DNA of 64,000 nucleotides from Narcine bancroftii (Eukaryota): NCBI RefSeq assembly GCF_036971445.1, contig NC_091469.1, forward strand, positions 8,742,001 to 8,806,000, read 5' to 3'. Below, piece by piece: positions 3,867 through 60,420 of this stretch (its first letter is position 1; each line of letters starts with the position of its first letter). The translations under genes were made by a program, and so were the position numbers. Under the pieces are notes generated by a model that made no database searches, had not been told where the DNA came from, and was given only the letters and a program-made list of their open reading frames with translations.

Positions 3867-5545
3867 CCATGCATGCCATAGACAAGTCCACACCATTCCA
3901 AGTAGAGAGCAATGCATCTGACTTTAATCAAGCAGGCAGACCCATCAGCTTTTTCTCATACACCCTACAAAGCCCTGAAATTTGCCACTCTTCCATCGAG
4001 AAGGAGGCCCAGGTCATATTGGAGGCTGTACTCCACTGGAGGCAACATCTCGCTGGGAAACAGTTCACCCTCCTCACAGATCAGTGAGCTGTAGCATTCA
4101 TGTTTAATAATACGCAAAGAGGAAAAGTCAAGAATGATAAGATCCTCAGGTGGAGAATCGAGCTGTCCACTTACAACTACGACATCCTCTACTGGCCTGG
4201 CAAACTCTGGAGCCTCTGGACACTCGATCCCGAGGAACCTGTGCTAGTGTTGAAATGGACAGACTGCAGGCTCTCCACAATGACCTTTACCACCCCAGAG
4301 TTTCTAGGTTTTTCAATTTTATCAAATCTCGAAATCTACCATACTTCATTGAGGAAGTCCAGACAATGACTAAAAACTGTCAGGTCTGTGCCAAATGCAA
4401 ATTTCAATTCTATTGGCTGAACAAAGCACATATGATCAAGGCTCTCTGCTCCTTCGAGCACCTCAGCATTGATTTCAAGGGACCTCTCCCCTACTCCAAC
4501 CAGACTGTCTACTTCCTTATTATTATTGATGAATTCTCCCATTTCACCTTCACTATACCATGCCTGGACATGACCACAGCCACAGTTATCAAGGCCCTCC
4601 ATAATATCTTCATGTTCTTTGGATACCCTGTCTTCATCCACAGTGACCGAGGGTCATCATTCATAAATGATGAGCTGCAGCAGTACCTACTGGCCATAGG
4701 CATCACCATGAGCAGGACCACCAGCTATAATCCCAGGGATAATGACCAAGTGGAAAGGGAGAACACCACAGTAAGGAAGACCATTCTCCTGGCACTGAGG
4801 TCTCTCTGTCTCCCAATGGCAAGAGTCCTCCCAGACACAGTCACTTTTATGTATGGCCACCAACAATATGCCTCATGAATGGATGTTTGTTTTTCCTAGG
4901 ATCTATGCTGCCCGCCTGGCTTACCTCCCCAGGACCAGTCCTGCTCCGGAAGCACATTAGGCGATCTAAGAGTGACCCATTGGTCGAGAGGGTCCGTCTT
5001 CTCCACGCAAACCCCCAGTAAGCCTACATTGCCTTCGCTGATGGACGTGAAGACAGAGTCTTGATCCAGCACCTTGCTCCATCGGGGGCCTCACTGCTGA
5101 CCACTGACTTTCAAAAGACACCCCCCTCACTTCAACTTTAGGGATCCTGCAATCCAACCCCTACCCCTTCCAACAATGTACTGGCTCCACACACCCCCAG
5201 CACCCCACCTGTATCTGCCCCTCAACAAACTGTTAACAGACCAACCTCACAAGCTGCTCAGGGTGCTAAGGCAATGCCCCAACCACTGCCACACTGCTCG
5301 CCGCAGCAGAGGAGACCCCAAAAGGCTTAACTTCTAAAATGTACAGTTGTTTCACCCTCTCTTTTTTCTCACCCTGCAGGACCCTTCTTAAAAAGGAGGG
5401 GTAAATGTGATAAACCACTGTAATGCCATGATTGGCTGCTGCCGGCTGGACACACCTCCCGATACCAATCCTACCCATAACCCCTTGCATGCTCCCCCTT
5501 TCTCTTTGCTTCATTCAGCCTTTTGTAATTGTTGATGCCACATCA
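3867..5545 (+). mobile_element. Gypsy LTR retrotransposon, 3' half (RNase H, integrase, PPT, 3' LTR)
   Basis: RNase H GRPISFFS..EKEA..FTLLTDQ; integrase HHCC region, SIDFKGP, IHSDRG, VEREN; PPT aaaaaggagggg 5390-5401; LTR begins TG at 5406 and ends CA at about 5545. Confidence 0.9.
4150..4878 (+). pseudogene. Gypsy integrase remnant
   Basis: ORF track 242 aa with Zn-binding region and DDE residues (IDFKG, HSDRG, VERE); frameshifted at both ends. Confidence 0.85.
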
Positions 5546-7382: not shown

Positions 7383-8805
7383 TAACATTATAACATTTCC
7401 ACGTATAACATTATAACAAAACCTTATAACAATTACATAACGGAATCAGGCCATATCGCCCCTTCTAGTCTGCACCAATTTAAGTGAACTCCACTAGTAC
7501 CACCTACCTGCTCCCTGCCCATAACCCTCCAACCCCCTCACACCCATGTACTCATACAACCTTCTCTTAAATGACAAAATTGACCCTGCTGCAACCATCT
7601 CTTCTGGAAGGTCATTACACTCAGTTACCACTCTGAGTGAAGAAGCTTCCTCTTAAGGTTACTTCTAAAGTTTTGCCCCCTAACCCTTAACTTACGACCC
7701 CTTGTACCAATCTCCCCTACCCTCAGGGGAAAGAGCCTACTCACATCTACTCTATCTATTCCCTTCATAATTTTAAATACTTCTATCAAATCCCCTCTCC
7801 ATCAAATAAAGTCCCAGTCTACTCAATCTTTCTCCATATTCTAGATGCTGCAATCCAGGCAACATTTTAGGAATGCACCCTCTGTCCCTTATTGATATCC
7901 TTCCTATAATTTGGAGACCAGACTGCACACAGTATTCTAAACTTGCCCTCACCAATGCCTTGAACAGTCTCAACATCACCTTCCAGCTCCTATATTATAT
8001 GCTGTGATTTATAAAGGCCAGCACAATAAAAGCCTTCTTCATCACATGAAAATCCACTTTCAAAGAACGATAAACCATAATTCCAAGATCTCTCTGTTCC
8101 TTTGCATTCCTCAATGCCTTCCCCTTTACTGCATAAGTCCTGTTTTGATTATTCTTCCCAAATGAAGCACTTCACACTTATTTACATTAAACTCCATCTG
8201 GCCACTCTTCTAAGCAGGCCAAATCCTTCTGCAGTCCCCGAAAACCATCTTCCCTATCCACAACTCCCCCTATTTTTGTATCGTCCGCATATTTACTAAC
8301 CCAATTTACCACTCCATCATCCAAATCATTAATGTAAATAACGAACAACAAGGGACCCAACACCGATCCCTGAGGCACATCGCTAGTCATTGGCCTCCAT
8401 CCTGAAAGACAATTGTCCACCATGACTCTCTGGTGTCTATATTCTAGCCACCTTTGAACCCATCTGACTAGCTCAACATTAATCCCTAGTGCCTGAACCT
8501 TCCTTACAACCTTCCATGTGGAACCTTATTGAAAGCCTTAATGAAAACCAAATAGACCACATCTACTGCTCTACCTTCTTTGACCTCTCTAGTTACTTCC
8601 TCAAAAAATTCAACAAGATTTGTCAAACATGACCTTCCCCTCACAAACCCATGTCGGGTGTCCCTGATCAATCCCTGTCCCTCTAAATACTTATACATAT
8701 TATCTCTAAGAATGCTTTATATTAGTTTACCCACCTGTGATGTCAAACTTACTGGACCTACATCTGGAGCCCTATTTAAACAGAGGAACCATGTTTGCAA
8801 CATGA
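7383..8805 (-). mobile_element. CR1 LINE 3' part (RT, 3'UTR, ataac-repeat tail)
   Basis: ORFs HGFVRGRSCLTNLVEFFE, VPQGSVLGPLLF, KYADDTK, LEYCVQ; tail (taacatta)n at 7383-7440. Confidence 0.92.
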
Positions 8806-9658: not shown

Positions 9659-10795
9659 TTCATGGCTTGGTTCAGCATCATGCTGAAGACCCCAACAATG
9701 AAGACGCTGTTTACATCCGGTACCGCACGGATGGCAGTCTCTTCAATCTGAGGCGCCTGCAAGCTCACACCAAGACACAAGAGAAACTTGTCCGTGAACT
9801 ACTCTTTGCAGATGATGCCGCTTTAGTTGCCCATTCAGAGCCAGCTCTTCAGCGCTTGACGTCCTGCTTTGCGGAAACTGCCAAAATGTTTGGCCTGGAA
9901 GTCAGCCTGAAGAAAACTGAGGTCCTCCATCAGCCAGCTCCCCACCATGACTACCAGCCCCCCCACATCTCCATCGGGCACACAAAACTCAAAACGGTCA
10001 ACCAGTTTACCTATCTCGGCTGCACCATTTCATCAGATGCAAGGATCGACAATGAGATAGACAACAGACTCGCCAAGGCAAATAGCGCCTTTGGAAGACT
10101 ACACAAAAGAGTCTGGAAAAACAACCAACTGAAAAACCTCACAAAGATAAGCGTATACAGAGCCGTTGTCATACCCACACTCCTGTTCGGCTCCGAATCA
10201 TGGGTCCTCTACCGGCACCACCTACGGCTCCTAGAACGCTTCCACCAGCGTTGTCTCCGCTCCATCCTCAACATCCATTGGAGCGCTCACACCCCTAACG
10301 TCGAGGTACTCGAGATGGCAGAGGTCGACAGCATCGAGTCCACGCTGCTGAAGATCCAGCTGCGCTGGATGGGTCACGTCTCCAGAATGGAAGACCATCG
10401 CCTTCCCAAGATCGTATTATATGGCGAGCTCTCCACTGGCCACCGTGACAGAGGTGCACCAAAGAAAAGGTACAAGGACTGCCTAAAGAAATCTCTTGGT
10501 GCCTGCCACATTGACCACCGCCAGTGGGCTGATAACGCCTCAAACCGTGCATCTTGGCGCCTCACAGTTTGGCGGGCAGCAGCCTCCTTTGAAGAAGACC
10601 GCAGAGCCCACCTCACTGACAAAAGGCAAAGGAGGAAAAACCCAACACCCAACCCCAACCAACCAATTTTCCCTTGCAACCGCTGCAATCGTGTCTGCCT
10701 GTCCCGCATCGGACTGGTCAGCCACAAACGAGCCTGCAGCTGACGTGGACTTTTTACCCCCTCCATAAATCTTCGTCCGCGAAGCCAAGCCAAAG
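9659..10795 (+). mobile_element. RTE-clade LINE, 5'-truncated with short 5' inversion; 10-bp TSD ataggccact
   Basis: Open frame with LLFADD, YLG and C-terminal CxxC..H..C; TSD at 9649-9658 and 10796-10805. Confidence 0.95.
9688..10743 (+). pseudogene. RTE ORF C-terminal fragment (RT thumb plus CCHC), uninterrupted
   Basis: 358-aa ORF in the track; nearly identical to the translation of 23427-24480. Confidence 0.9.
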
Positions 10796-23426: not shown

Positions 23427-26400
23427 TCAGCTGCAGGCTCGTTTGTGGCTGACAAGTCCGATGCGGGACAGGCAGACACGGTTGCATCAGTTGCAAGGGA
23501 AGATTGGTTGGTCGGGGCTGGGTGTTGGGTTTTTCCTCCTTTGTCTTTTGTCAGTGAGGTGGGCTCTGCGGTCTTCTTCAAAGGAGGTTGCTGCCCGCCG
23601 AACTGTGAGGCGCCAAGAGGCACGGTTTGAGGCGATATCAGCCCACTGGCGATGGTCAATGTGGCAGGCACCAAGAGATTTCTTTAGGCAGTCCTTGTAC
23701 CTCTTCTTTGGTGCACCTCTGTCACAGTGACCAGTGGAGAGCTCGCCATATAACACGATCTTGGGAAGGTGATGGTCCTCCATTCTGGAGACGTGACCCA
23801 CCCAGCGCAGCTGGATCTTCAGCAGATTGGATTCGATGCTGTCGGCCTCTGCCATCTCAAGTACTTCGATGTTGGAGATGAAGTCGCTCCAATGAATGTT
23901 GAGGATGGAGCGGAGACAACGCTGGTGGAAGCGTTCTAGGAGCCGTAGGTGATGCCGGTAGAGGACCCATGATTCGGAGCCGAACAGGAGTGTGGGTATA
24001 ACAACGGCTCTGAATACGCTAATCTTTGTGAGGTTTTTCAAATGGTTGTTTTTCCAGACTCTTTTGTGTAGTCTTCCAAAGGCGCTCTTTGCCTTGGCGA
24101 GTCTGTTGTCTATCTCGTTGTCGATCCTTGCATCCGATGAAATGGTGCAGCCGAGATAGGTAAACTGGTTGTCCGTTTTGAGTTTTGTGTGCCCTATGGA
24201 GATGTGGGGGTGCTGGTAGTCATGGTGGGGAGCTGGCTGATGGAGGACCTTAGTTTTCTTCAGGCTGACTTCCAGGCCAAACATTTTGGCAGTTTCCGCA
24301 AAACAGGATGTCAAGCGCTGAAGAGCTGGCTCTGAATGGGCAACTAAAGCGGCATCGTCCGCAAAGAGTAGTTCACGGACAAGTTGCTCTTGTGTCTTGG
24401 TGTGAGCTTGCAGGCGCCTCAGATTGAAGAGACTGCCATCCGTGCGGTACTGGATATAAACAGCGTCTTCATTGTTGGGGTCTTTCATGGCTTGTTTCAG
24501 CATCTTGCTGAAGAAGATTGAAAAGAGGGTTGGTGCGAGAACGCAGCATTGCTTCATGCCATTGTTAATGGAGAAGGGTTCAGAGAGCTCATTGCTGTAT
24601 CTGACCCGACCTTGTTGGTTTTCGTGCAGTTGGATAACCATGTTGAGGAATTTTGGGGGGCATCCGAGGCGCTCTAGTATTTGCCAAAGCCCTTTCCTAC
24701 TCACGGTGTTGAAGGCTTTGGATAGGTCAACAAAGGTGATGTAGAGTCCTCTGTTTTGTTCTCTGCATTTTTCTTGGAGCTGTCTGAGTGCAAAGACCAT
24801 GTCAGTAGTTCCTCTGTTTGCGCGAAAGCCACACTGTGATTCTGGGAAAACATTTTTGGCGACACTAGGTATTATTCTATTTAGGAGAATCCTAGCGACG
24901 ATTTTGGCTGCAATGGAGTGCAGCGTGATTCCCCTGTAGTTTGAGCAGTCTGATTTCTCGCCTTTGTTTTTGTACTAGGTGATGATGATGGCATCACGAA
25001 GGTCCTGAGGCAGCTTTCCTTGGTCCCAGCAGAGCTTGAAAAACTCATGCAGTTTGGCATTCAGAGTTTTGCCGCCAGCCTTCCAGACCTCTGGGGGGAT
25101 TCCATCCATACCTGCTGCTTTGCCACTTTTCAGTTGTTCAATTGCCTTATATGTCTCTTCCCGGGTGAGGACGTCATCCAGCTCTAGCTTTAAGGGCTGT
25201 TGAGGGAGCTGGAGCAGGGCAGATTCTTGGACTGAGCGGATGGCACTGAAAAGAGATTGTATGTGTTCTGACCATCATTTGAGGATGGAGATCTTGTCGC
25301 TGAGGAGGACTTTGCCGTCTGAGCTGTGCAGCGGGCTTTGGACTTGGGATGAAGGGCCGTACACAGCCTTTAGAGCCTCGTAAAAACCCTTGAAGTCGCC
25401 AATGTCCGCGCTGAGCTGGGTTCGTTTGGCGAGGCTAGTCCAACACTCATTTTGGATCTCCCGGAGTTTGCGCTGAAGATGGCTACATGCGCGACGGAAG
25501 GCTCGCTTCTTCTCTGGCCAGGGCGGCTTTGCAAGGTGAGCCTGGTGGGCAGCTCGCTTCTTTGTCAGCAGCTCCTGGAGTTCCTGGTTGTTTTCGTCGA
25601 ACCAGTCCTTGTTTTTCCTGGAGGAGAAGCCCAGTACCTCTTCAGTGGATTGCAGTATGGCAGTCTTCAGCTGATCCCAGAGGGTTTCAGGGGACGAGTC
25701 CGTGAGGCGGATTGCATCCTCGAGCTTTGCTTGGAGGTTTGCCTGGAAGTTTCCTCTCACTTCGTCTGACTGCAAGTTTCCAACATTGAACCTCTTTCTG
25801 GGAGCTTTACTGTTCCTGGACTTTGACTTGAAGTGAAGGTTGAGCTTGCAGCGAACCAACCGGTGGTCAGTGTGGCATTCCGCGCTGGGCATGACCCTGG
25901 TGTGGAGCACATCTCGTTTGTCACTTTCTCGCACCAGGACGTAGTCCAGGAGGTGCCAGTGTTTGGATCAGGGATGCATCCAGGTAGTCTTCAGGCTGTC
26001 CCTCTGCTAAAAAAGGGTGTTTGTAATGACAAGCCGCTGTTCTGCGCAGAGCTCCAACAGGAGGCGCCCATTGTCGTTGCAGTTGCCGACACCATGCTTG
26101 CCCAGGATTCCTGGCCAGGTTTCTGAGTCTTTGCCGACGTGAGCGTTAAAGTCGCCAAGGATGACAACCTTGTTGGCTGTAGGGGTGCATTGAATGAGGT
26201 TGCGCAGATCAGCGTAGAACTTGTCCTTTTCTGCTGGTTCCGCCTGGAGGGTTGGAGCATAGACACTGATGAGGGTGATGCGACGCTTGTTTTGAAGGGG
26301 GAGTCGCATGGACATGATCCGGTCCGAGTGGGCTGTCGGGAGGTTTTCGAGTTTGGAGGCAATGGAGTTCTTGACCATGAAGCCTACACCAGATAGGCGT

Positions 26401-26663
26401 CGTTCATCCATAGGCTTGCCAGACCAGTAGAGTGTGTAGCCCACGCCGTGTTCTTGGAGGCTGCCTACATCTGCAAGGTGGACTTCACTGAGAGCGGCTA
26501 TGTTGATGTCAAGTCTGAGGAGTTAATGTGCGATGAGGGCAGACCAACGTTCAGGTCGGTGGCTGTCAGCCTTGTCTAGCATGGTTCTGATGTTCCAGCA
26601 TGCTAGCTTGAGTTTGTGAGCATCTTTTGAGGGGGAGGACGTGGAGGGGGTGGACGTGGACAT
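23427..26663 (-). pseudogene. RTE ORF (APE endonuclease plus RT plus CCHC, about 1078 codons) with a few stops and a frameshift
   Basis: ATG at 26663: MSTSTPSTSSPSKDAHKLKLACWNIRT; ISVYAPT, LGDFNA, TDHRL, FVDLSKAF, LFADD. Stops at about 26007 and 25275; frameshift near 23487. Confidence 0.92.
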
Positions 26664-28014: not shown

Positions 28015-28850
28015 CAGTGGTTTTCAAACTGTCCCGCTAAACTAACATTCCACCTTAAGTTATCCCTATACCATAAGTGCTCTGTGATTGGTAAGGGATT
28101 GCTTAAGGTGGTATGTGAATGGGAAGGGAAGGTTGAGAATCACTGCTCGAGACCCAATTGTTTCTGAAATACTTTGCTTGAGAAAAATTGTCATTGGCCC
28201 ATTTCCTTTGGAGTTATCAAACCATGCACATAATGAAGTCAATTAGGTATGATTAAACCAGTAGTTTTCAAACTTTTTCTTTCCACTCACATCTTTTCTT
28301 CTTCTTCGTTTTCTGGCTACCCATCCCAGTTTGTAGGCTTTGATATGTGTGTCCTGGAGTGGCTGTACGGGCTTATTCTTGACAGGCACTGAGGATACCC
28401 CACTCCTCAGAAAGGAATAGCATGTGTGTGAATGGATTTAGGTGAGTAGGGGTTTGCACAGGTCCAGACCCACCCTCTTGACATCCCCTCCCAGATCTAA
28501 TGGCATGGTGAGGTCCAAGATAGCTGGGGTAAGTTATTTTGCAGTGAATGGCCAGAGCTTCGATGCAAGGGATACCCTTTCCGTGCTTCACGGCACATTT
28601 GTTGGATGGCTGTTGACCCTACGAGAGGGTTCGTCCGCCCTTTGACGGGTCTTGTTTTTCATCCTGCAGGGAGTCGAAACATCCTCTATATAATGGGGGA
28701 GCCAGTTTAGTCACCAACCACCCTACCATGCGACATGGTAACAGTAACAATCAGACGAGTGACCTGACAAGCAAATCACAGAGCACTTATGGTATAGGGA
28801 TTGCTTCAGGTGAAATGTGTTTAGGGGGAGGGGGAGTTTGAAAATCTCTG
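28015..28850. mobile_element. hAT (Charlie-like) composite MITE with 8-bp TSD ctctaaag/ctctgaag
   Basis: TIR cagtggttttcaaac / gtttgaaaatctctg; internal TIR copies; homologous to 38366-38862. Confidence 0.85.
28293..28772 (-). mobile_element. Non-coding insertion in the MITE, probably an RTE-derived non-autonomous element
   Basis: Absent from the sister MITE; (ttc)n tail at left; body resembles RTE UTR sequence. Confidence 0.5.
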
Positions 28851-30885: not shown

Positions 30886-31159
30886 GTACCAGAGGCAAAG
30901 GCCAATTTGCAAATTAGCTGATTCATGAATAAGCAAAAGGCTAATCCCTGGGTTGAAAAGTCTTTCCAAGCAAATGGTTGAAGAACTATAATCAGAACAT
31001 TTGGAATTAAGAAGAATTGAGGTTGGTGGGAGGTGGGAGATGATATTATTCAGGAAGTTTCTAAGGAGCAGGACTGGGCTGATGCTAAAATGTTTCCTCT
31101 CATGGTGTGAGGACATAGTTACAAGATGAGGGGGCAGGCATTTACTTCTAGGTGGGAAC

Positions 31160-31602
31160 AATGCACAAACAAGCTGGAGAAACTCAACAGGTTGCACAGC
31201 ATCCATGAGAAGTAAGCGGTAACCAGTGTTTTGGGTCTGAGCCATTCCACCAGTTCTCTAGATGTAGCCTCCCAGTCAAACTCTGCCCTGGACCCAGACT
31301 CCTATTTATTTAGATCTGTAACAGATATTCTCTTCTCGGTCTATCAAATCCTTTTGGAAACAATTCCAATTCACATTGGGTCACTCAATGCAAGAAACTC
31401 AAAGACTTTCACTCTGCCTGCTGCAACAGCAAGGACCTCTCTGTGGCCAATCAATTCCACACATCATCCCTACACTGACACCCAGGCTAGAAGCATTGGT
31501 TACCTTTTACTTCCCATGGATGCTGCGTGACCTGCTGAATTTCTCCAGCATGTTTGTGTATTGCCCTCGACCCCAGCATCTGCAGATATTCTTGTTTGAC
31601 TG
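31160..31602. mobile_element. Penelope-derived fold-back element with captured centre
   Basis: Arms at about 31160-31245 and 31495-31600 are reverse complements; the centre contains a copy of 33242-33356. Confidence 0.75.
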
Positions 31603-35419: not shown

Positions 35420-35901
35420 TTTCTTTCTTTGGCTTGGCTTCGCGGATGAAGATTTATGGAGGTGGTAAAAAGTCCACGTCAGCTGCAGGCTCGTTTGTGG
35501 CTGACAAGTCCGATGCGGGACAGGCAGACACGGTTGCAGCGGTTGCAGGGGAAAATTGGTTGGTTGGGGTTGGGTGTTGGGTTTTTCCTCCTTTGCCTTT
35601 TGTCAGTGAGGTGGGCTCTGCGGTCTTCTTCAAAGGAGGTTGCTGCCCGTCAAACTGTGAGGCGCCAAGATGCATGGTTTGAGGCGTTATCAGCCCACTG
35701 GCGGTGGTCAATGTGGCAGGCACCAAGAGATTTCTTTAGGCAGTCCTTGTACCTTTTCTTTGGTGCACCTCTGTCACGGTGGCCAGTGGAGAGCTCGCCA
35801 TATAACACGATCTTGGGAAGGCGATGGTCCTCCATTCTGGAGACGTGACCCATCCAGCGCAGCTGGATCTTCAGCAGCGTGGACTCGATGCTGTCGACCT
35901 C
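35420..35901 (-). mobile_element. RTE 3' fragment, 8-bp TSD tgtcacat
   Basis: Near-identical to the 3' part of 9659-10795; TSD at 35412-35419 and 35902-35909. Confidence 0.95.
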
Positions 35902-35919
35902 TGTCACATACCCCATTGA

Positions 35920-37383: not shown

Positions 37384-37560
37384 NNNNNNNNNNNNNNNNN
37401 NNNNNNNNNNNNNNNNNNNNNNNNNNNNNNNNNNNNNNNNNNNNNNNNNNNNNNNNNNNNNNNNNNNNNNNNNNNNNNNNNNNNNNNNNNNNNNNNNNNN
37501 NNNNNNNNNNNNNNNNNNNNNNNNNNNNNNNNNNNNNNNNNNNNNNNNNNNNNNNNNNNN
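37384..37560. other. Assembly gap (177 N)
   Basis: Run of N. Confidence 1.
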
Positions 37561-38335: not shown

Positions 38336-38365
38336 AATTTGGTTGTTGTTTGGGCATCTTTATAC

Positions 38366-38862
38366 CAGTAGTCCACAACCTTTTCCTTTCCACTCATATA
38401 CCACTTTAAGTAATCCCTATGCCCTAAGGGCTCCGTGATTAATAAGGGATCGCTGAAGGTGGTATGTGAGTGGGAAGGGAAGGTTGAGAATCACTGGTCT
38501 AGACCCAATTGTTATTGAAATATTTTGCTTGGGAAAAATTGTCATTGGCTCATTTACTTTGGAGTTATGAAACTGTGCACATAATAACTCAATTAGGTAC
38601 GATCAAACCAATAATTTCATGTCAGACAAGGGGTGTTTTGATTCCTCTAAGCCTGACCTCTACTATTGATGAAGTAAGTTCTCCATTGTTACAGCAAAGC
38701 ACTGAAATAAATCAGCTCAGCAGTAATCCACACTGTGTGATTTTCAAACTTTTTTTTTCCACCAACATACCACCTTAAGCAATCCATTATCACAGAGCAC
38801 ATATGGCATAGGGAATACTTAAAGTGGTATGTGTGTGGAAAGAAAATGGTTGAGAACCACTG
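38366..38862. mobile_element. hAT composite MITE, perfect 8-bp TSD ctttatac, with a 128-bp captured insert
   Basis: TSD at 38358-38365 and 38863-38870; TIR cagtagtccacaac / gttgagaaccactg. Confidence 0.9.
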
Positions 38863-40050
38863 CTTTATACTATTCCTAGGTTGACTTTCCCCTGCTATTT
38901 TTTACCTCTACCTAAGAGGACTTTTGATCTTATAAGCTGAGATCATCCCACTGAACTGTATGTATTAGCAGAGCTATCCTGCCATCATTTATTTTATCAT
39001 TCCTCCCTCTGTTCCTAATTCACATCTTCCAGTCCAGTGACGATATATTTGAAATATTATTAATTTAATGAACAGACATTATATTCTTTCTTTGGCTTGG
39101 CTTCGCGGACGAAGATTTATGGAGGGGGTAAAAAGTCCACGTCAGCTGCAGGCTCGTTTGTGGCTGACAAGTCCGATGCGGGACAGGCAGACACGATTGC
39201 AGCGGTTGCAAGGGAAAATTGGTTGGTTGGGGTTGGGTGTTGGGTTTTTCCTCCTTTGCCTTTTGTCAGTGAGGTGGGCTCTGCGGTCTTCTTCAAAGGA
39301 GGCTGCTGCCCGCCAAACTGTGAGGCGCCAAGATGCACGGTTTGAGGCGTTATCAGCCCACTGGCGGTGGTCAATGTGGCAGGCACCAAGAGATTTCTTT
39401 AGGCAGTCCTTGAAGACATTATATTAGCAAGGAACAAAATCACAACCACCAGTGTCAGGAAATTGTGTAAAATTATTAATTCTCCATTCCCTGATACTCT
39501 AATTTCTGAGAAGCAAATGCCACATCATTCAGACAGACCCCAGAAATACAAACTCTGCTGGCTTGTTAGCACTGAACACATTCATATAATTTTCATAAAT
39601 TTGTCCACAAATCCATCATTAATTAAAGATTATGTTTCTAATATATGGTTTTATCCATGACAGCTGGTGTGAAATGTGTTCACTGTTAAATTGCTTTACA
39701 CGTCCTTTCAAGTTTTATATTCGTCAGATCGGAATTCGTGATTTCATTTTAATGACATAGAATAGTATATTTAGAAATTAGTTATTTCATATTTAAATAC
39801 ATTTTATATTAAATTCTTGCCAATGTGTTATTTGCATAAAAAGGATTACTTTCAAAGTAACATTAGATAAATCATTAGATTGGTCTTCACAGCAAGATAA
39901 TGTCAGGAAACTTAAAGCCAATACAGTGTGGATTACTGCTGAGCTGATTTATTTCAGTGCTTTGCTGTAACAATGGAGAACTTACTTCATCAATAGTAGA
40001 GGTCAGGCTTAGAGGAATCAAAACACCCCTTGTCTGACATGAAATTATTG
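38609..40050. repeat. Inverted duplication, arms 38609-38736 and 39923-40050 (128 bp, no mismatch seen)
   Basis: Direct comparison; identical 42-aa translation on opposite strands in the ORF track. Confidence 0.97.
39086..39413 (-). mobile_element. RTE 3' fragment, 12-bp TSD agacattatatt
   Basis: TSD at 39074-39085 and 39414-39425; near-identical to about 10473-10795. Confidence 0.95.
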
Positions 40051-40199
40051 CAGCATATTTTATTTTTATTATTCCTGGCCACCTTTCTCCCACTCTTGGA
40101 ATAAACAGGAAATATTATTGTGGTTGCTTGCACAGTTATGCTTACCATCTTGTATTGTTGATGACATACTTTTGTATTCGATCTTTTTATGAAAATTTA

Positions 40200-44829: not shown

Positions 44830-45300
44830 GTTTTCAAGTTCAAGTTTATCGCACTCTGTGATGCTGCCACAAAACAATAAATTTCATGACATGTTCCTGA
44901 CAATAATTTCTGGTTTTGTACATATACAACCAGTCTAAACAGTATTTCTCCTGACCACAGTTCACATAAACACACATAAACACAGCAAATAATAATTACA
45001 NNNNNNNNNNNNNNNNNNNNNNNNNNNNNNNNNNNNNNNNNNNNNNNNNNNNNNNNNNNNNNNNNNNNNNNNNNNNNNNNNNNNNNNNNNNNNNNNNNNN
45101 NNNNNNNNNNNNNNNNNNNNNNNNNNNNNACAAGATGCGATTCATCAATCACACAGACTGTGGGAAAAAAGCTATAAAAGCTACTTCCCAGCCTAGCAGT
45201 CCTGATTTTGATGCTCCTGAGCCTCCTTCCTGATGGCAATGGGTCAAAGTTAGTATGCAAAGGGTAGAAAGGGTCTTCAATAATTCTCTGAGTCCTCTTT
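44830..45300 (-). mobile_element. Rex1/Babar 3' end spanning a gap
   Basis: FDPLPSGRRLRSIKIRTARLGSSFY; ttcaagttcaag tail. Confidence 0.75.
45001..45129. other. Assembly gap (129 N)
   Basis: Run of N. Confidence 1.
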
Positions 45301-45937: not shown

Positions 45938-46954
45938 TTGGAGGGCGGGATGGGATGAGTATTAATGTGACTGATGTCCAGAAGCTGGTTGTCACCTGAA
46001 AGGGATAAGGACGTAATGTGGATATTGGAGTAGTAAGGGGAGGTTGGAGGGGGGGATGGGATGAGTATTAATGTGACTGATGTCCAGAAGCTGGTTGGCA
46101 CCTGAAAGGGATAAGGAAGTAATGTGGATATTGGAGTAGTAAGGGGAGGTTGGAGGGGGGATGGGATGAGTATTAATGTGACAGATGTCCATTAGCTGGT
46201 TGGCACCTGAAAGGGATAAGGAAGTAATGTGGATATAGGAGTAGTAAGGGGAGGTTGGAGGGGGGATGGGATGAGTATTAATGTGACAGATGTCCATTAG
46301 CTGGTTGGCACCTGGAAGGGATAAGGAAGTAATGTGGATATTGGAGTAGTAAGGGGAGGTTGGAGGGGGGATGGGATGAGTATTAATGTGACTGATGTCC
46401 AGAAGCTGGTTGGCACCTGAAAGGGATAAGGAAGTAATGTGGATATTGGAGTAGTAAGGGGAGGTTGGAGGGGGGATGGGATGAGTATTAATGTGACAGA
46501 TGTCCATTAGCTGGTTGGCACCTGAAAGGGATAAGGAAGTAATGTGGATATTGGAGTAGTAAGGGGAGGTTGGAGGGGGGATGGGATGAGTTTTAATGTG
46601 ACAGATGTCCATTAGCTGGTTGGCACCTGGAAGGGATAAGGAAGTAATGTGGATATTGGAGTAGTAAGGGGAGGTTGGAGGGGGGATGGGATGAGTATTA
46701 ATGTGACTGATGTCCATTAGCTGGTTGGCACCTGAAAGGGATAAGGAAGTAATGTGGATATTGGAGTAGTAAGGGGAGGTTGGAGGGGGGATGGGATGAG
46801 TTTTAATGTGACTGATGTCCATTAGCTGGTTGTCACCTGAAAGGGATAAGGAAGTAATGTGGATATTGGAGTAGTAAGGGGAGGTTGGAGAGGGGATGGG
46901 ATGAGTATTAATGCGACTGATGTCCAGAAGCTGGTTGGCACCTGAAAGGGATAA
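45938..46954. repeat. 105-bp minisatellite, about 9.7 near-identical copies
   Basis: (a/t)ttaatg anchor at 45961, 46067, 46172, 46277, 46382, 46487, 46592, 46697, 46802, 46907. Confidence 0.98.
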
Positions 46955-51460: not shown

Positions 51461-52359
51461 TGGATTTGTTCAAAGCAGGCAAATGGAACTCATTCAGAAC
51501 GTCAGCTTGGTTGATATCGGGATGAGCTGGGCTGAATGATCATTCAGTGTGATTATCAGCTTGAGGGAGCTCAGAGATACCTGTCTAACTCAATATCCAC
51601 TCTCAGTTTCACCAATTGACAACTTTTTGGGGGGGCCTGTGTGCCTATTTGAGGTAGATTTGATCATGGGTGTTTACTTAAGGTTTGAGAGCTGTCCACT
51701 ACGATGGACATTTTAAACTCTCTACCCACAACAACCAGCCTCGTTCATCATTGGATGGTTTATATCAAGAACATATTTTGCTCTGATGTTCCCACCACAC
51801 CATCTTACACATTGGGACTCTGAATGAATTGGCCCTGGATTTCAGGAGGTGAGAAATACTGGTGGCAATAATGTGATGCTATGGTTGAACACCCTACCAT
51901 TTTATCTGCATGTTTGTAGGCTCATCATCAGAGCGGATCTATCAACAAAACATCTTTCAGAATGGTGGAATAGACATCAGTGCCTGGTTCAGTCATGTTT
52001 TAACATCAGAGCACATGGTACACGTAGTCTTCACAGCAGTACACAAGAGTGCTGGAGAAACTTAGCAGGTCACACTGAATCTATGTGTGTATATGGATTC
52101 TGCATGCACTTCACATGTACTCATTCAATTATAGGCTGATTTTGGTTCATTAACCAACAGCTAGCCTGAGCCTGTTAATATCCTGGTTGTCTGAAAATTT
52201 GAGAAAGCAGCCCAGGAATGGATAAATGCAGGTGGTCCAGCTCTGTTAATTATACCTGTGTTCTGATGCTGTTAATTTAACACCCTGATTCTTGACACAT
52301 TAAGCCTTTGGAACCTCTGACAGGCTTCATTTCACTTCCTTGCTCCAGAAGACAATAAG

Positions 52360-52650
52360 AAAACACACAAAACTGCAGGAGGATTTCTGGAGCTCTTGCA
52401 GCATTCATAGGAATTAAATATATATTACCAATGTTTCTGGCCTGAGCCCTTCCTCAAGGCACGAGTAAAAAGCAGGCAGTGTCTGAGTAAAAATCAGGCA
52501 TCTGCCTGCTTTTCGAATATCTTGAAGAAGGGCTCAGGTCCGAAACGTCAGTAACGTATAATTTCCTCCTTTGGATGTTGCGAGAGCTCCTGAGTTCATC
52601 CAGCATTTCTGTGTTTTTACTACAATCACAGCATCCTCTAACTTCCTTGT
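52360..52650. mobile_element. Penelope-derived palindrome with a hammerhead-like core in each arm
   Basis: Right arm cttgaagaagggctcaggtccgaaacgtc; left arm is its reverse complement tgtttctggcctgagcccttcctcaag. Confidence 0.8.
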
Positions 52651-58384: not shown

Positions 58385-58645
58385 GAGCGATGGGTGAGTG
58401 AATGGGGAAGGGGCCCTGAGTCAGAGTGGCAGGGGGCAGTGTCAGAACAAAGGGTGGAGTTGGAGCAGGGGCAGAGTTGTAGCAGCGTGGGGTGGAGTCT
58501 GAGCGACGGAAAGAGCGGAGTCAGCGTGGCAGGGGGCGGAGCTTGAGCGAGGACAGAATCGGAGCGGGGTAGGGGCCGGAGTTGGAGTGGTGGTGGGGTG
58601 GAGTCAGAACAGAGGAGTGGAATCAGAGCAGTGGGAAGGAGGCAA
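58385..58645. repeat. G-rich degenerate repeat (ggggcggagtcagag-like), source of the 59732-59816 copy
   Basis: Recurring ggagtcag/ggggc motifs. Confidence 0.7.
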
Positions 58646-58679: not shown

Positions 58680-60420
58680 GCCAGATCCCCTGAAATTTCT
58701 ACACAAGCCTCCATCAAGTTCTAAGGGAATAACTAGTCAGTCTTGGGAATTTATGCACCCTTATTTGCTTTAAGACAGCAAGCACTTCCTCCTCTTTAAT
58801 CTGTATAGGTTCCTTGACCACACTGCTTGTTTTCCGTACTTCCCACAACTCTGTGCCTATTTCCTGAGTGAATACTGATTAAAAAAAAACATTTCAGACT
58901 TCTTCCATCTCTTTTAACTGCATACAAAGCCGACGACTCTGATCTTCAAGGGGACCAATTTTGTCCCTTACTATCCTTTTGTTCTTAATATACCTTTAGA
59001 AACCCTTATGATTTTCCTTCACATTGTCTGCCAAAGCGACCACACGTTGTCTTTTAGTCTTCCTGATTTATTTCTTGAGGAATTTCTTGCATTTGTTATA
59101 TTCCTCAAGTACCTCATTTGTTCCATGTTGCCAATATCAGTTGTACACCTCTCTTGTTCCGAACCAGATCCCCAATACCCACAAAAACCAAGGTTCTCTA
59201 TACCTTCTAATCTTGCATTTGATCCTGACAGGAATAAACAAACTCTGTACTCTCAAAATTTCACCTTTGTAGGTCTTCCATTTACCTTGCACATCCTTGT
59301 CAGAAACATTCTATCCCAATCCAAGAATTCTAGATCATTTCTTATCTCCTCAAAGATGGCCTTTCTCCAATTTAGAATCTCAACTTGAGGCCCAGACCTA
59401 TCCCTCCCCATTATTAATGTGAAACTAATTATATTATGATCATTGGAACCAAAATGTTCCCTTACACATAATTCTGTCACCTGTCCTGTCTTGTTTTCTA
59501 ATATGTGATTCAGTATTGCACTCTCTCCAGTTGGTACCTCTATATATTGATTTAGAAAACTTTTCTCAACATATTTGACAAATTACCAGCCACCCAGCCC
59601 TTTTACAGTATGGGAGTCCCAGGTTAAAATCCCCTACTATCACAACTTTGTTTCCTACAGCTTCTGCTATCTCTCTACAGATTTGCTCCTCCAAGTCTCA
59701 TTGACTATTGGAGGGTCTATAATACAACCCATGAGTGAATGGGGAAGGGGCAGAGTTGTAGCAGCGTGGGGTGGAGTCTGAGCGATGGAAAGAACGGAGT
59801 CAGAGTGGCAGGGGGCCCCCTGCCTCTCCGACTCCGAGACCCTTCCCCATACAACCCTCAGTTCCACGCATATAGCCTCAGTAGTCACGCCCTCTGATCT
59901 GTCCTGCCAGAGCACAGCTGTGATATTTCCCCTGATGAGCAATGCCACTCATCCTCCTTTCATCCCCCCAATTCAAAAGAAGCCCAGATTAATGAGCTGC
60001 CTGTCCTGCCCTTCCTCCAACCATGCCACAATGTAGAAATTCCACATGCCAATCCATGCTCTAAGCTTGCCTGCCTTTCCTACAATACTCCTTCATTGAA
60101 ATAGATGCATCTGAGAAAATTTCCACCACGTTGACTTCTAAGGGAGCATACAATTTTAACATAATCTTTTCCCTCCTCCACTGCTCTATCTGCTCTGACA
60201 CACTGGTTCCCCTCCCCCTGCAAATCTAGTTGAAACCCACTGGAGCAGCACTAGCAAATCTGCCCACAAAGATATTAGTCTCCTTCCCGTTCAAATGCAA
60301 ACCATTCCATCGGAACAAGTCCCACCTTGCCTAGAAGAGAGCCCAATGATCCAGAAACCTGAAGCCCTCTCTTCTACACCATGTTTTTAGCCATTTGTTA
60401 AGCTGCATTATCCTCCCAAT
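58680..60420 (-). mobile_element. CR1 fragment (ORF1 3' end plus EN), with foreign insert 59732-59816
   Basis: WDLFRWNGLHLN; ALLIRGNITAV; EHFGSNDHN. Confidence 0.85.

Follow-up and report, generated by a model that had tools for sequence, protein, structure and literature searches.

Short copies separated from their templates by a characteristic one to a few kb have reportedly been encountered in at least two settings: Abyzov et al. are said to have described distal templates of micro-insertions at deletion breakpoints in 2015, and the "nearby doublets" attributed to Thomas et al. in 2004 are reportedly shorter and mostly of the same strand. In the abortive excision of hAT elements (Ac/Ds type) with filler DNA, nearby DNA is captured at the transposon end. 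For human genomes, the accessible part of the 1000 Genomes report gives 54% of 229 sequenced inversion sites as inverted duplications, nearly all of them shorter than 1 kb and at most 5 kb from their source (PMC4617611). For induced breaks, the available text of the Indel-Seq study describes 59% of templated insertions as blunt on one side and showing a 2-3-nt microhomology on the other, with one third of the donors at most 2 kb from the break, a distance set by the length of resection (10.1101/2022.09.30.509517). Cleavage by hAT transposases, as outlined in the portion at hand of a study of its chemistry, produces a hairpin at the end of the flanking DNA, and the element is joined through its intact end (PMC5499845).

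We have analyzed a 64-kb stretch of DNA (the window), a repeat-rich eukaryotic scaffold whose repeat types suggest a cartilaginous fish, in which a segment of neighboring DNA recurs in inverted orientation inside a hAT-type MITE. This insert is probably a real, host-made local templated insertion, that is, a proximal inverted duplication. A literature search, admittedly thin and therefore not proof of absence, found no paper on such copies in sharks. The coordinates of the features are collected in Table 1.

Table 1. Positions of the insert, its donor, the host MITE and the other local copies (window coordinates).
Feature	Position	Strand	Remark
hAT-type MITE, 497 bp	38366..38862	.	a spacer flanked by two oppositely oriented TIR-bounded units
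Left unit with TIR-like ends	38366..38496	.	outer TIR with 2 mismatches to the pattern
Spacer	38497..38608	.	forms the loop when the empty-site model folds into its long hairpin
Inverted templated copy	38609..38736	-	126 new bases (38611-38736) plus 2-base overlap CA (38609-38610)
Right unit, remainder	38737..38862	.	opens with the internal TIR, of which the first two letters are missing
Target-site duplication (8 bp), left copy, CTTTATAC	38358..38365	+	
Target-site duplication (8 bp), right copy, CTTTATAC	38863..38870	+	
3' piece of a young RTE-like LINE, located between copy and donor	39086..39413	-	99.4% to 10473-10799
Donor	39923..40050	+	intact, unique-looking; unique depth in bins 39909-40108
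Sister MITE showing the empty site (reference only)	28015..28850	.	
Inverted pair	13609-13766/15564-15721		spacing 1797 bp
Inverted pair	19384-19621/21436-21662		spacing 1814 bp
Inverted pair	31276-31393/33239-33356		spacing 1845 bp
Complex direct copy	59732-59853, donor 58395-58537		1.2-1.3 kb from donor

Anatomy of the insert and its host

The two arms, 38609-38736 and 39923-40050, are exact reverse complements over 128 of 128 letters, which confirms the perfect 128-bp inverted copy described in the first-pass annotation of this DNA; a match of this kind cannot be chance. The absence of any difference sets the upper 95% bound on their divergence at 2.3%. The arms lie 1186 bases apart, in support of the earlier proposal of templated copying from about 1.2 kb away. 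Part of the intervening DNA is a LINE piece bounded by a 12-bp duplication (39074-39085 and 39414-39425), without which the spacing is ∼846 bp; this would be the original distance if the LINE arrived later. The piece belongs to a young RTE-like LINE with four copies in the window (39086-39413, 35423-35906, 9686-10799 and 23371-26522), 93-99% alike, one of them with long open frames.

The assignment of the host to hAT-type MITEs, also made from the letters at first pass, is well supported by the 8-bp target-site duplication (8 of 8 letters here and 7 of 8 at the sister element), the short TIRs with a 15-bp motif, the noncoding character (no ORF of at least 120 aa in the MITE) and the high depth of the family. 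The latter reaches ∼10^6 in summed form against ∼20 in unique bins, a figure that is not a copy number. The element and its sister are identical at 233 of 279 positions (83.5%), and the internal TIR continues as GTGATTTTC in this copy and as GTAGTTTTC in the sister. The right unit of the sister is itself interrupted by ∼480 bp of foreign sequence (28292-28774).

The direction of copying is established by the same element. Once the arm is taken out, the flanks can be aligned over the insertion site with the sister MITE (28058-28292), at 86% identity in 235 columns. Since the sister thus displays the empty site, and since the joined donor flanks have no other match within the 64-kb window, 39923-40050 served as the source of the copy at 38609-38736. 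An insert at the same position was found in 0 of 1 sister elements within the window, and a metagenome scan with a 19-letter MITE motif returned 10 loci, none of which (0/10) matched the window in BLAST. Inversion of the whole spacer through staggered breaks was rejected, as the MITE resumes directly after the copy and the DNA on the donor side is not MITE.

The anatomy of the junctions can be read directly from the letters. The right end of the insert is blunt and the left end carries a 2-base overlap, the CA at 38609-38610 being common to the internal TIR and the donor. Around the insert, the acceptor shows neither a target duplication nor poly(A), and nothing was lost from it. The event can be counted in two equivalent ways, as 126 bp inserted after CA without loss or as 128 bp inserted at the TIR edge with CA lost. 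The initial description, which had 128 bp entering the TIR two bases from its edge, counted CA twice.

Contig and depth evidence for the junctions

Five sequencing runs were available, four of them from one sample (0.92-0.93 of words) and one, X5, from organism B (0.13). Contigs were used throughout, namely those of three of the four sample runs and of X5, with X4 left out. Since the assembly was probably made from this sample, its contigs test for artefact rather than for polymorphism.

In each of the three sample runs a contig ends at 39952 and the next one starts at 39923, with a 30-letter overlap. This fork lies exactly at the donor edge that matches the right junction and is what is expected where a second context meets the donor. 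In addition, a contig of run X1 (record 4) starts within the insert, of which it covers 30 letters, one below the bridging rule applied, and runs on into the MITE, at a depth of 11.3 versus ∼17 and with 10 other letters and 2 gaps among its 118 placed letters (34 were unplaced). The right junction is present in the contig data. Record 4, over 38707-38826, may represent a graph chimera, or else the assembly is inexact in this half of the MITE; an alternative reading, in which it joins a different MITE half of the window, was rejected, each of the five halves tried giving at least 15 mismatches.

The left junction was crossed by no contig among the 32 pieces listed (223,915 further pieces lay outside the listing), and the donor contig passes 40050 unbroken, with no fork, in all three runs. 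Both observations may reflect graph cleaning, in which short single-copy links to very deep repeats are lost. The depth of 2.4-4.6 in the insert bins is uninformative in this respect, because contigs fitting both arms were placed at the donor. This asymmetry, together with the low depth of record 4, the differences of its MITE part from the window, the 100% identity of the arms and the N gaps of the scaffold (37384-37560 and 45001-45129, the nearest 1 kb from the site), could be taken to mean that the right junction alone is genuine, for instance because 38737-39922 is inverted on one haplotype and the junction is an end of that inversion, and that the 128 bases and the left join were grafted by the assembler. 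We consider this unlikely. An inversion would demand a second fork at 39922, which was not seen in the contigs, and the left join gives back the MITE without any loss. Moreover, the three other inverted copies of the window differ from their donors by ∼1.6% and, in one case, by an 11-bp indel, unlike products of an assembler.

Depth weighs against such a graft as well, since an inversion adds no copy and yet the depth of the donor is raised. The donor-bearing contig has 1.14, 1.31 and 1.31 times the depth of the other listed single-copy contigs in the three runs (repeat-like records with other letters being excluded from the baseline), and no rise in depth accompanies GC among the other contigs. 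In simulations with assumed read lengths of 100-250, a mean depth this high arose with a chance of no more than 0.008 if there was no extra copy, of 0.003-0.043 with a heterozygous copy and of 0.08-0.21 with a homozygous one. The simulation also excludes a heterozygous duplication of the whole donor contig, and a heterozygous long foldback duplication was rejected on account of too low a depth (p ≤0.008). The donor depth, to which an old repeat piece in this contig may contribute, fits a homozygous second copy and favors two copies on both haplotypes of one individual. A pure artefact is unlikely. The polymorphism raised as a possibility at first pass is unproven from this one individual. The joint expected of an empty allele was absent among the 15 joints displayed of 386, and paralogous MITEs would yield an identical one; the empty state is seen in the sister MITE only.

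In organism B the depth at the site is 0.07, too low for this organism to serve as an outgroup. One contig of this run (X5 record 27) matches 190 letters of 38913-39102 without difference, the LINE junction included, and continues for 107 unfitted letters that point, by strand, towards the MITE.

Transposase end or hairpin stem at the insertion site

The position of the insert at a TIR edge raises the question of whether a transposase was involved, and nicking at the internal TIR had been put forward at first pass. In its explicit form this reading supposes that the internal TIR was cut by a hAT transposase during an abortive, single-end excision, with the loss of two letters and repair by the host from nearby DNA. 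With CA assigned to the donor, the left junction indeed falls exactly at the TIR edge; more generally, the acceptor break is at this edge or 2 bp inside it, as CA is common to both sides. One of the five local copies of the window lies at most 3 bp from one of eight TIR edges, a coincidence with p ∼0.004 for five events (a post hoc value), so that the insertion site is not obviously random. On the other hand, the chemistry of cleavage, as far as the available text describes it, would lead one to expect traces that the junction does not carry (PMC5499845): inspection of the junction letters revealed no palindromic footprint in the acceptor flank, and the TIR end at the right junction is missing its first two letters, CA, so that no intact TIR end is present. 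The insertion event is also much younger than the MITE family, as judged from the 233 of 279 identities with the sister against no difference within the insert, and no transposase-like ORF was recognized by eye among the 33 ORFs of the window. The TIR motif is found at 1 of 5 acceptor sites, the other four having no matching motif.

The first-pass annotation had noted a resemblance between the start of the donor and the TIR. The resemblance exists (7 of 10 letters, against either the GTGATTTTC or the GTAGTTTTC version) and would be in line with a transposase end, but it is near chance: the same level is reached at 41-56 of 8772 nearby sites and at 22-31 of the 680 nearby sites that start with CA. 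Selection of the donor for its likeness to the TIR was rejected, the likeness being near chance given CA and the product carrying donor letters from the third base on.

The structure of the element offers another view of the same position. The empty-site model folds as one long hairpin (-88.6 kcal/mol, a value computed without a shuffle control), with the insertion site 4 bp inside the loop end of the long stem; the right unit also folds alone, with the site 2 bp into its stem. Because the TIR edge is also a stem end, position cannot separate enzyme from structure. The absence of footprints and the sibling copies favor structure or chance over a transposase, whose involvement we regard as rather improbable. 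Nicking at the internal TIR, as first proposed, is thus a weak reading given the missing footprint, the missing intact end and the position of four of the five copies off hAT TIRs. The hairpin break suggested along with it is a fair description of the site at the stem's loop end, while the break itself is a matter of interpretation.

For the host-made insertion that we favor, the following course can be envisaged. A break or a stalled polymerase at the end of the hairpin stem in the old MITE would leave a free 3' end, which would copy, in reverse orientation, 126 bases of a template 1.2-1.4 kb away; the copying strand would then be released and the ends rejoined, one through the 2-base overlap and the other bluntly. 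A switch from the leading to the lagging strand at an uncoupled fork would account for the zero loss, and a foldback of a resected tail would account for the distance; the sequence cannot separate the two variants. What the anatomy of the site leads us to infer are the initial break or stall, a role for the hairpin, and the enzymes involved. The insert implies no function and is most likely a neutral repair scar in a dead repeat.

Sibling copies and comparison with described insertions

The insert is one of five local templated copies in the window, about one per 13 kb, which seems a high density for the inverted-duplication class. The four others lie 1.2-1.85 kb from their donors, are 93.5-97.5% identical to them, and none is situated at a hAT TIR. 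Four of the five copies are inverted. The three other inverted pairs are 93.7-97.5% identical, with spacings within 50 bp of each other, and their copies have 8 internal differences in 485 positions (∼1.6%, counted by eye) and an 11-bp indel in one case; such internal differences would argue against assembly copies. The suggestion that the insert studied here is the youngest of the five is plausible from its 0 differences in 128, although the contrast with 8 in 485 (Fisher p 0.22) leaves it unproven. The acceptors of the three inverted pairs seem to have lost some host-repeat sequence. The fifth copy (59732-59853) is of a more complex type, with direct pieces followed by an 18-bp perfect palindrome and an inverted piece.

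The acceptors comprise a CR1-like 3' end, two inverted-arm cassettes, the MITE at 38366-38862 and a CR1-like piece. The names CR1, RTE and Penelope are our assumed family labels for the window repeats, RTE being taken from ORF translations. The inverted-arm cassettes form a family (21393-21737, 22225-22713, 31159-31563 and 52358-52621), two members of which hold templated copies; we take them to be Penelope-like, and a search of Rfam at the gathering score gave 0 matches, hence no hammerhead support for this label. The direction of the 31276 pair rests partly on its interrupting a cassette, and partly on flanking translations that are presumably GIY-YIG protein-like. Hairpin elements make up 4% of the window and yet harbor three of the five acceptors (p 0.0006, rising to 0.005 with either arm counted, both post hoc). 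The arms of these acceptor hairpins are 78-84% alike, from which it follows that the copies postdate the hairpins.

The window contains further features of a different nature. These are a 105-bp tandem repeat (45938-46954; 96% matches across 9.7 copies) whose minus strand holds a 329-codon open frame, an old inverted pair (7554-8760 and 11954-13205) that is 75% alike over 1.25 kb with a LINE copy between its members, and two decayed frames (4141-4878 and 16824-17300) that appear by eye to resemble an LTR-retrotransposon integrase.

Distances and orientations of the copies bear on one more origin of the insert, a patch of RNA or of a released DNA fragment (an antisense transcript, a flap or an Okazaki fragment) ligated into a break, as in class 2 TSIPs. 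The length of 126-128 bp is within the 73-414 bp reported for such patches, whose junctions are of the end-joining type in the part of the report available (PMC5110952), and eukaryotic Okazaki fragments are given as ∼150 bp in the accessible text of another study (PMC10766186). However, the known patches come from distant sites according to the same portion of the TSIP report (PMC5110952), while 5 of 5 donors here are less than 1.9 kb away, in a one-window search that finds near donors only; moreover, a free fragment should enter in either orientation, and 4 of 5 copies are inverted. An origin of this kind is therefore highly improbable.

A wider reading of the local templated insertions, doubtful but consistent with the five copies, is that a dense record of this type extends through the lineage, made of 80-240-bp copies with a reach of 1.2-1.9 kb, mostly inverted and preferring old hairpin repeats (the MITE and Penelope-like arms). 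If it were true, the copy distance would read out the length of germline resection or fork uncoupling, and decayed palindromic repeats with ∼80% arm identity would remain fragile sites. The single scar is unimportant alone and matters as one of five in 64 kb. Should the density, distance and hairpin preference hold genome-wide, thousands of dated natural events would become available, on which the template reach of broken or stalled ends, and hairpins versus transposases as triggers, could be tested.

The comparisons that follow refer to the accessible parts of the reports cited. In its size and its intact donor, as well as in the lack of a target duplication or poly(A), the insert is like class 2 TSIPs, the donors of which are, unlike the one 1.2 kb away here, distant and often RNA-derived (PMC5110952). 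It differs from the products of abortive hAT excision in the missing hairpin footprint, the age of the element and the position of the siblings off hAT ends (PMC5499845). An inverted copy arising through a strand switch at a fork or through a foldback is shared with ODIRA (PMC10766186) and with yeast foldbacks (PMC11724301). ODIRA, however, involves 5-6-bp inverted repeats 40-80 bp apart and yields large triplications (PMC10766186), and yeast foldback insertions are mostly of 5-34 bp (PMC11724301), whereas the present event requires a jump of more than 1 kb and back. The resemblance to Indel-Seq insertions lies in the combination of one blunt and one microhomology end with a donor less than 2 kb away, with the difference that the 0-2 kb of that study are distances to breaks induced genome-wide in cultured human cells (10.1101/2022.09.30.509517). 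By the features tested the insert belongs to the local inverted-duplication class, and it lacks the footprint of a transposase. As with the inverted duplications of the 1000 Genomes set, it is short (less than 1 kb), runs backwards, lies at most 5 kb from an intact source and is unrelated to retrotransposition; unlike the human cases, which are polymorphic and validated by long reads, it is a single assembled site in a non-human vertebrate, with the right junction only in the contigs (PMC4617611). Overall, scars of this type are known in humans as well; unusual here is only how many lie close together, five in 64,000 bases.
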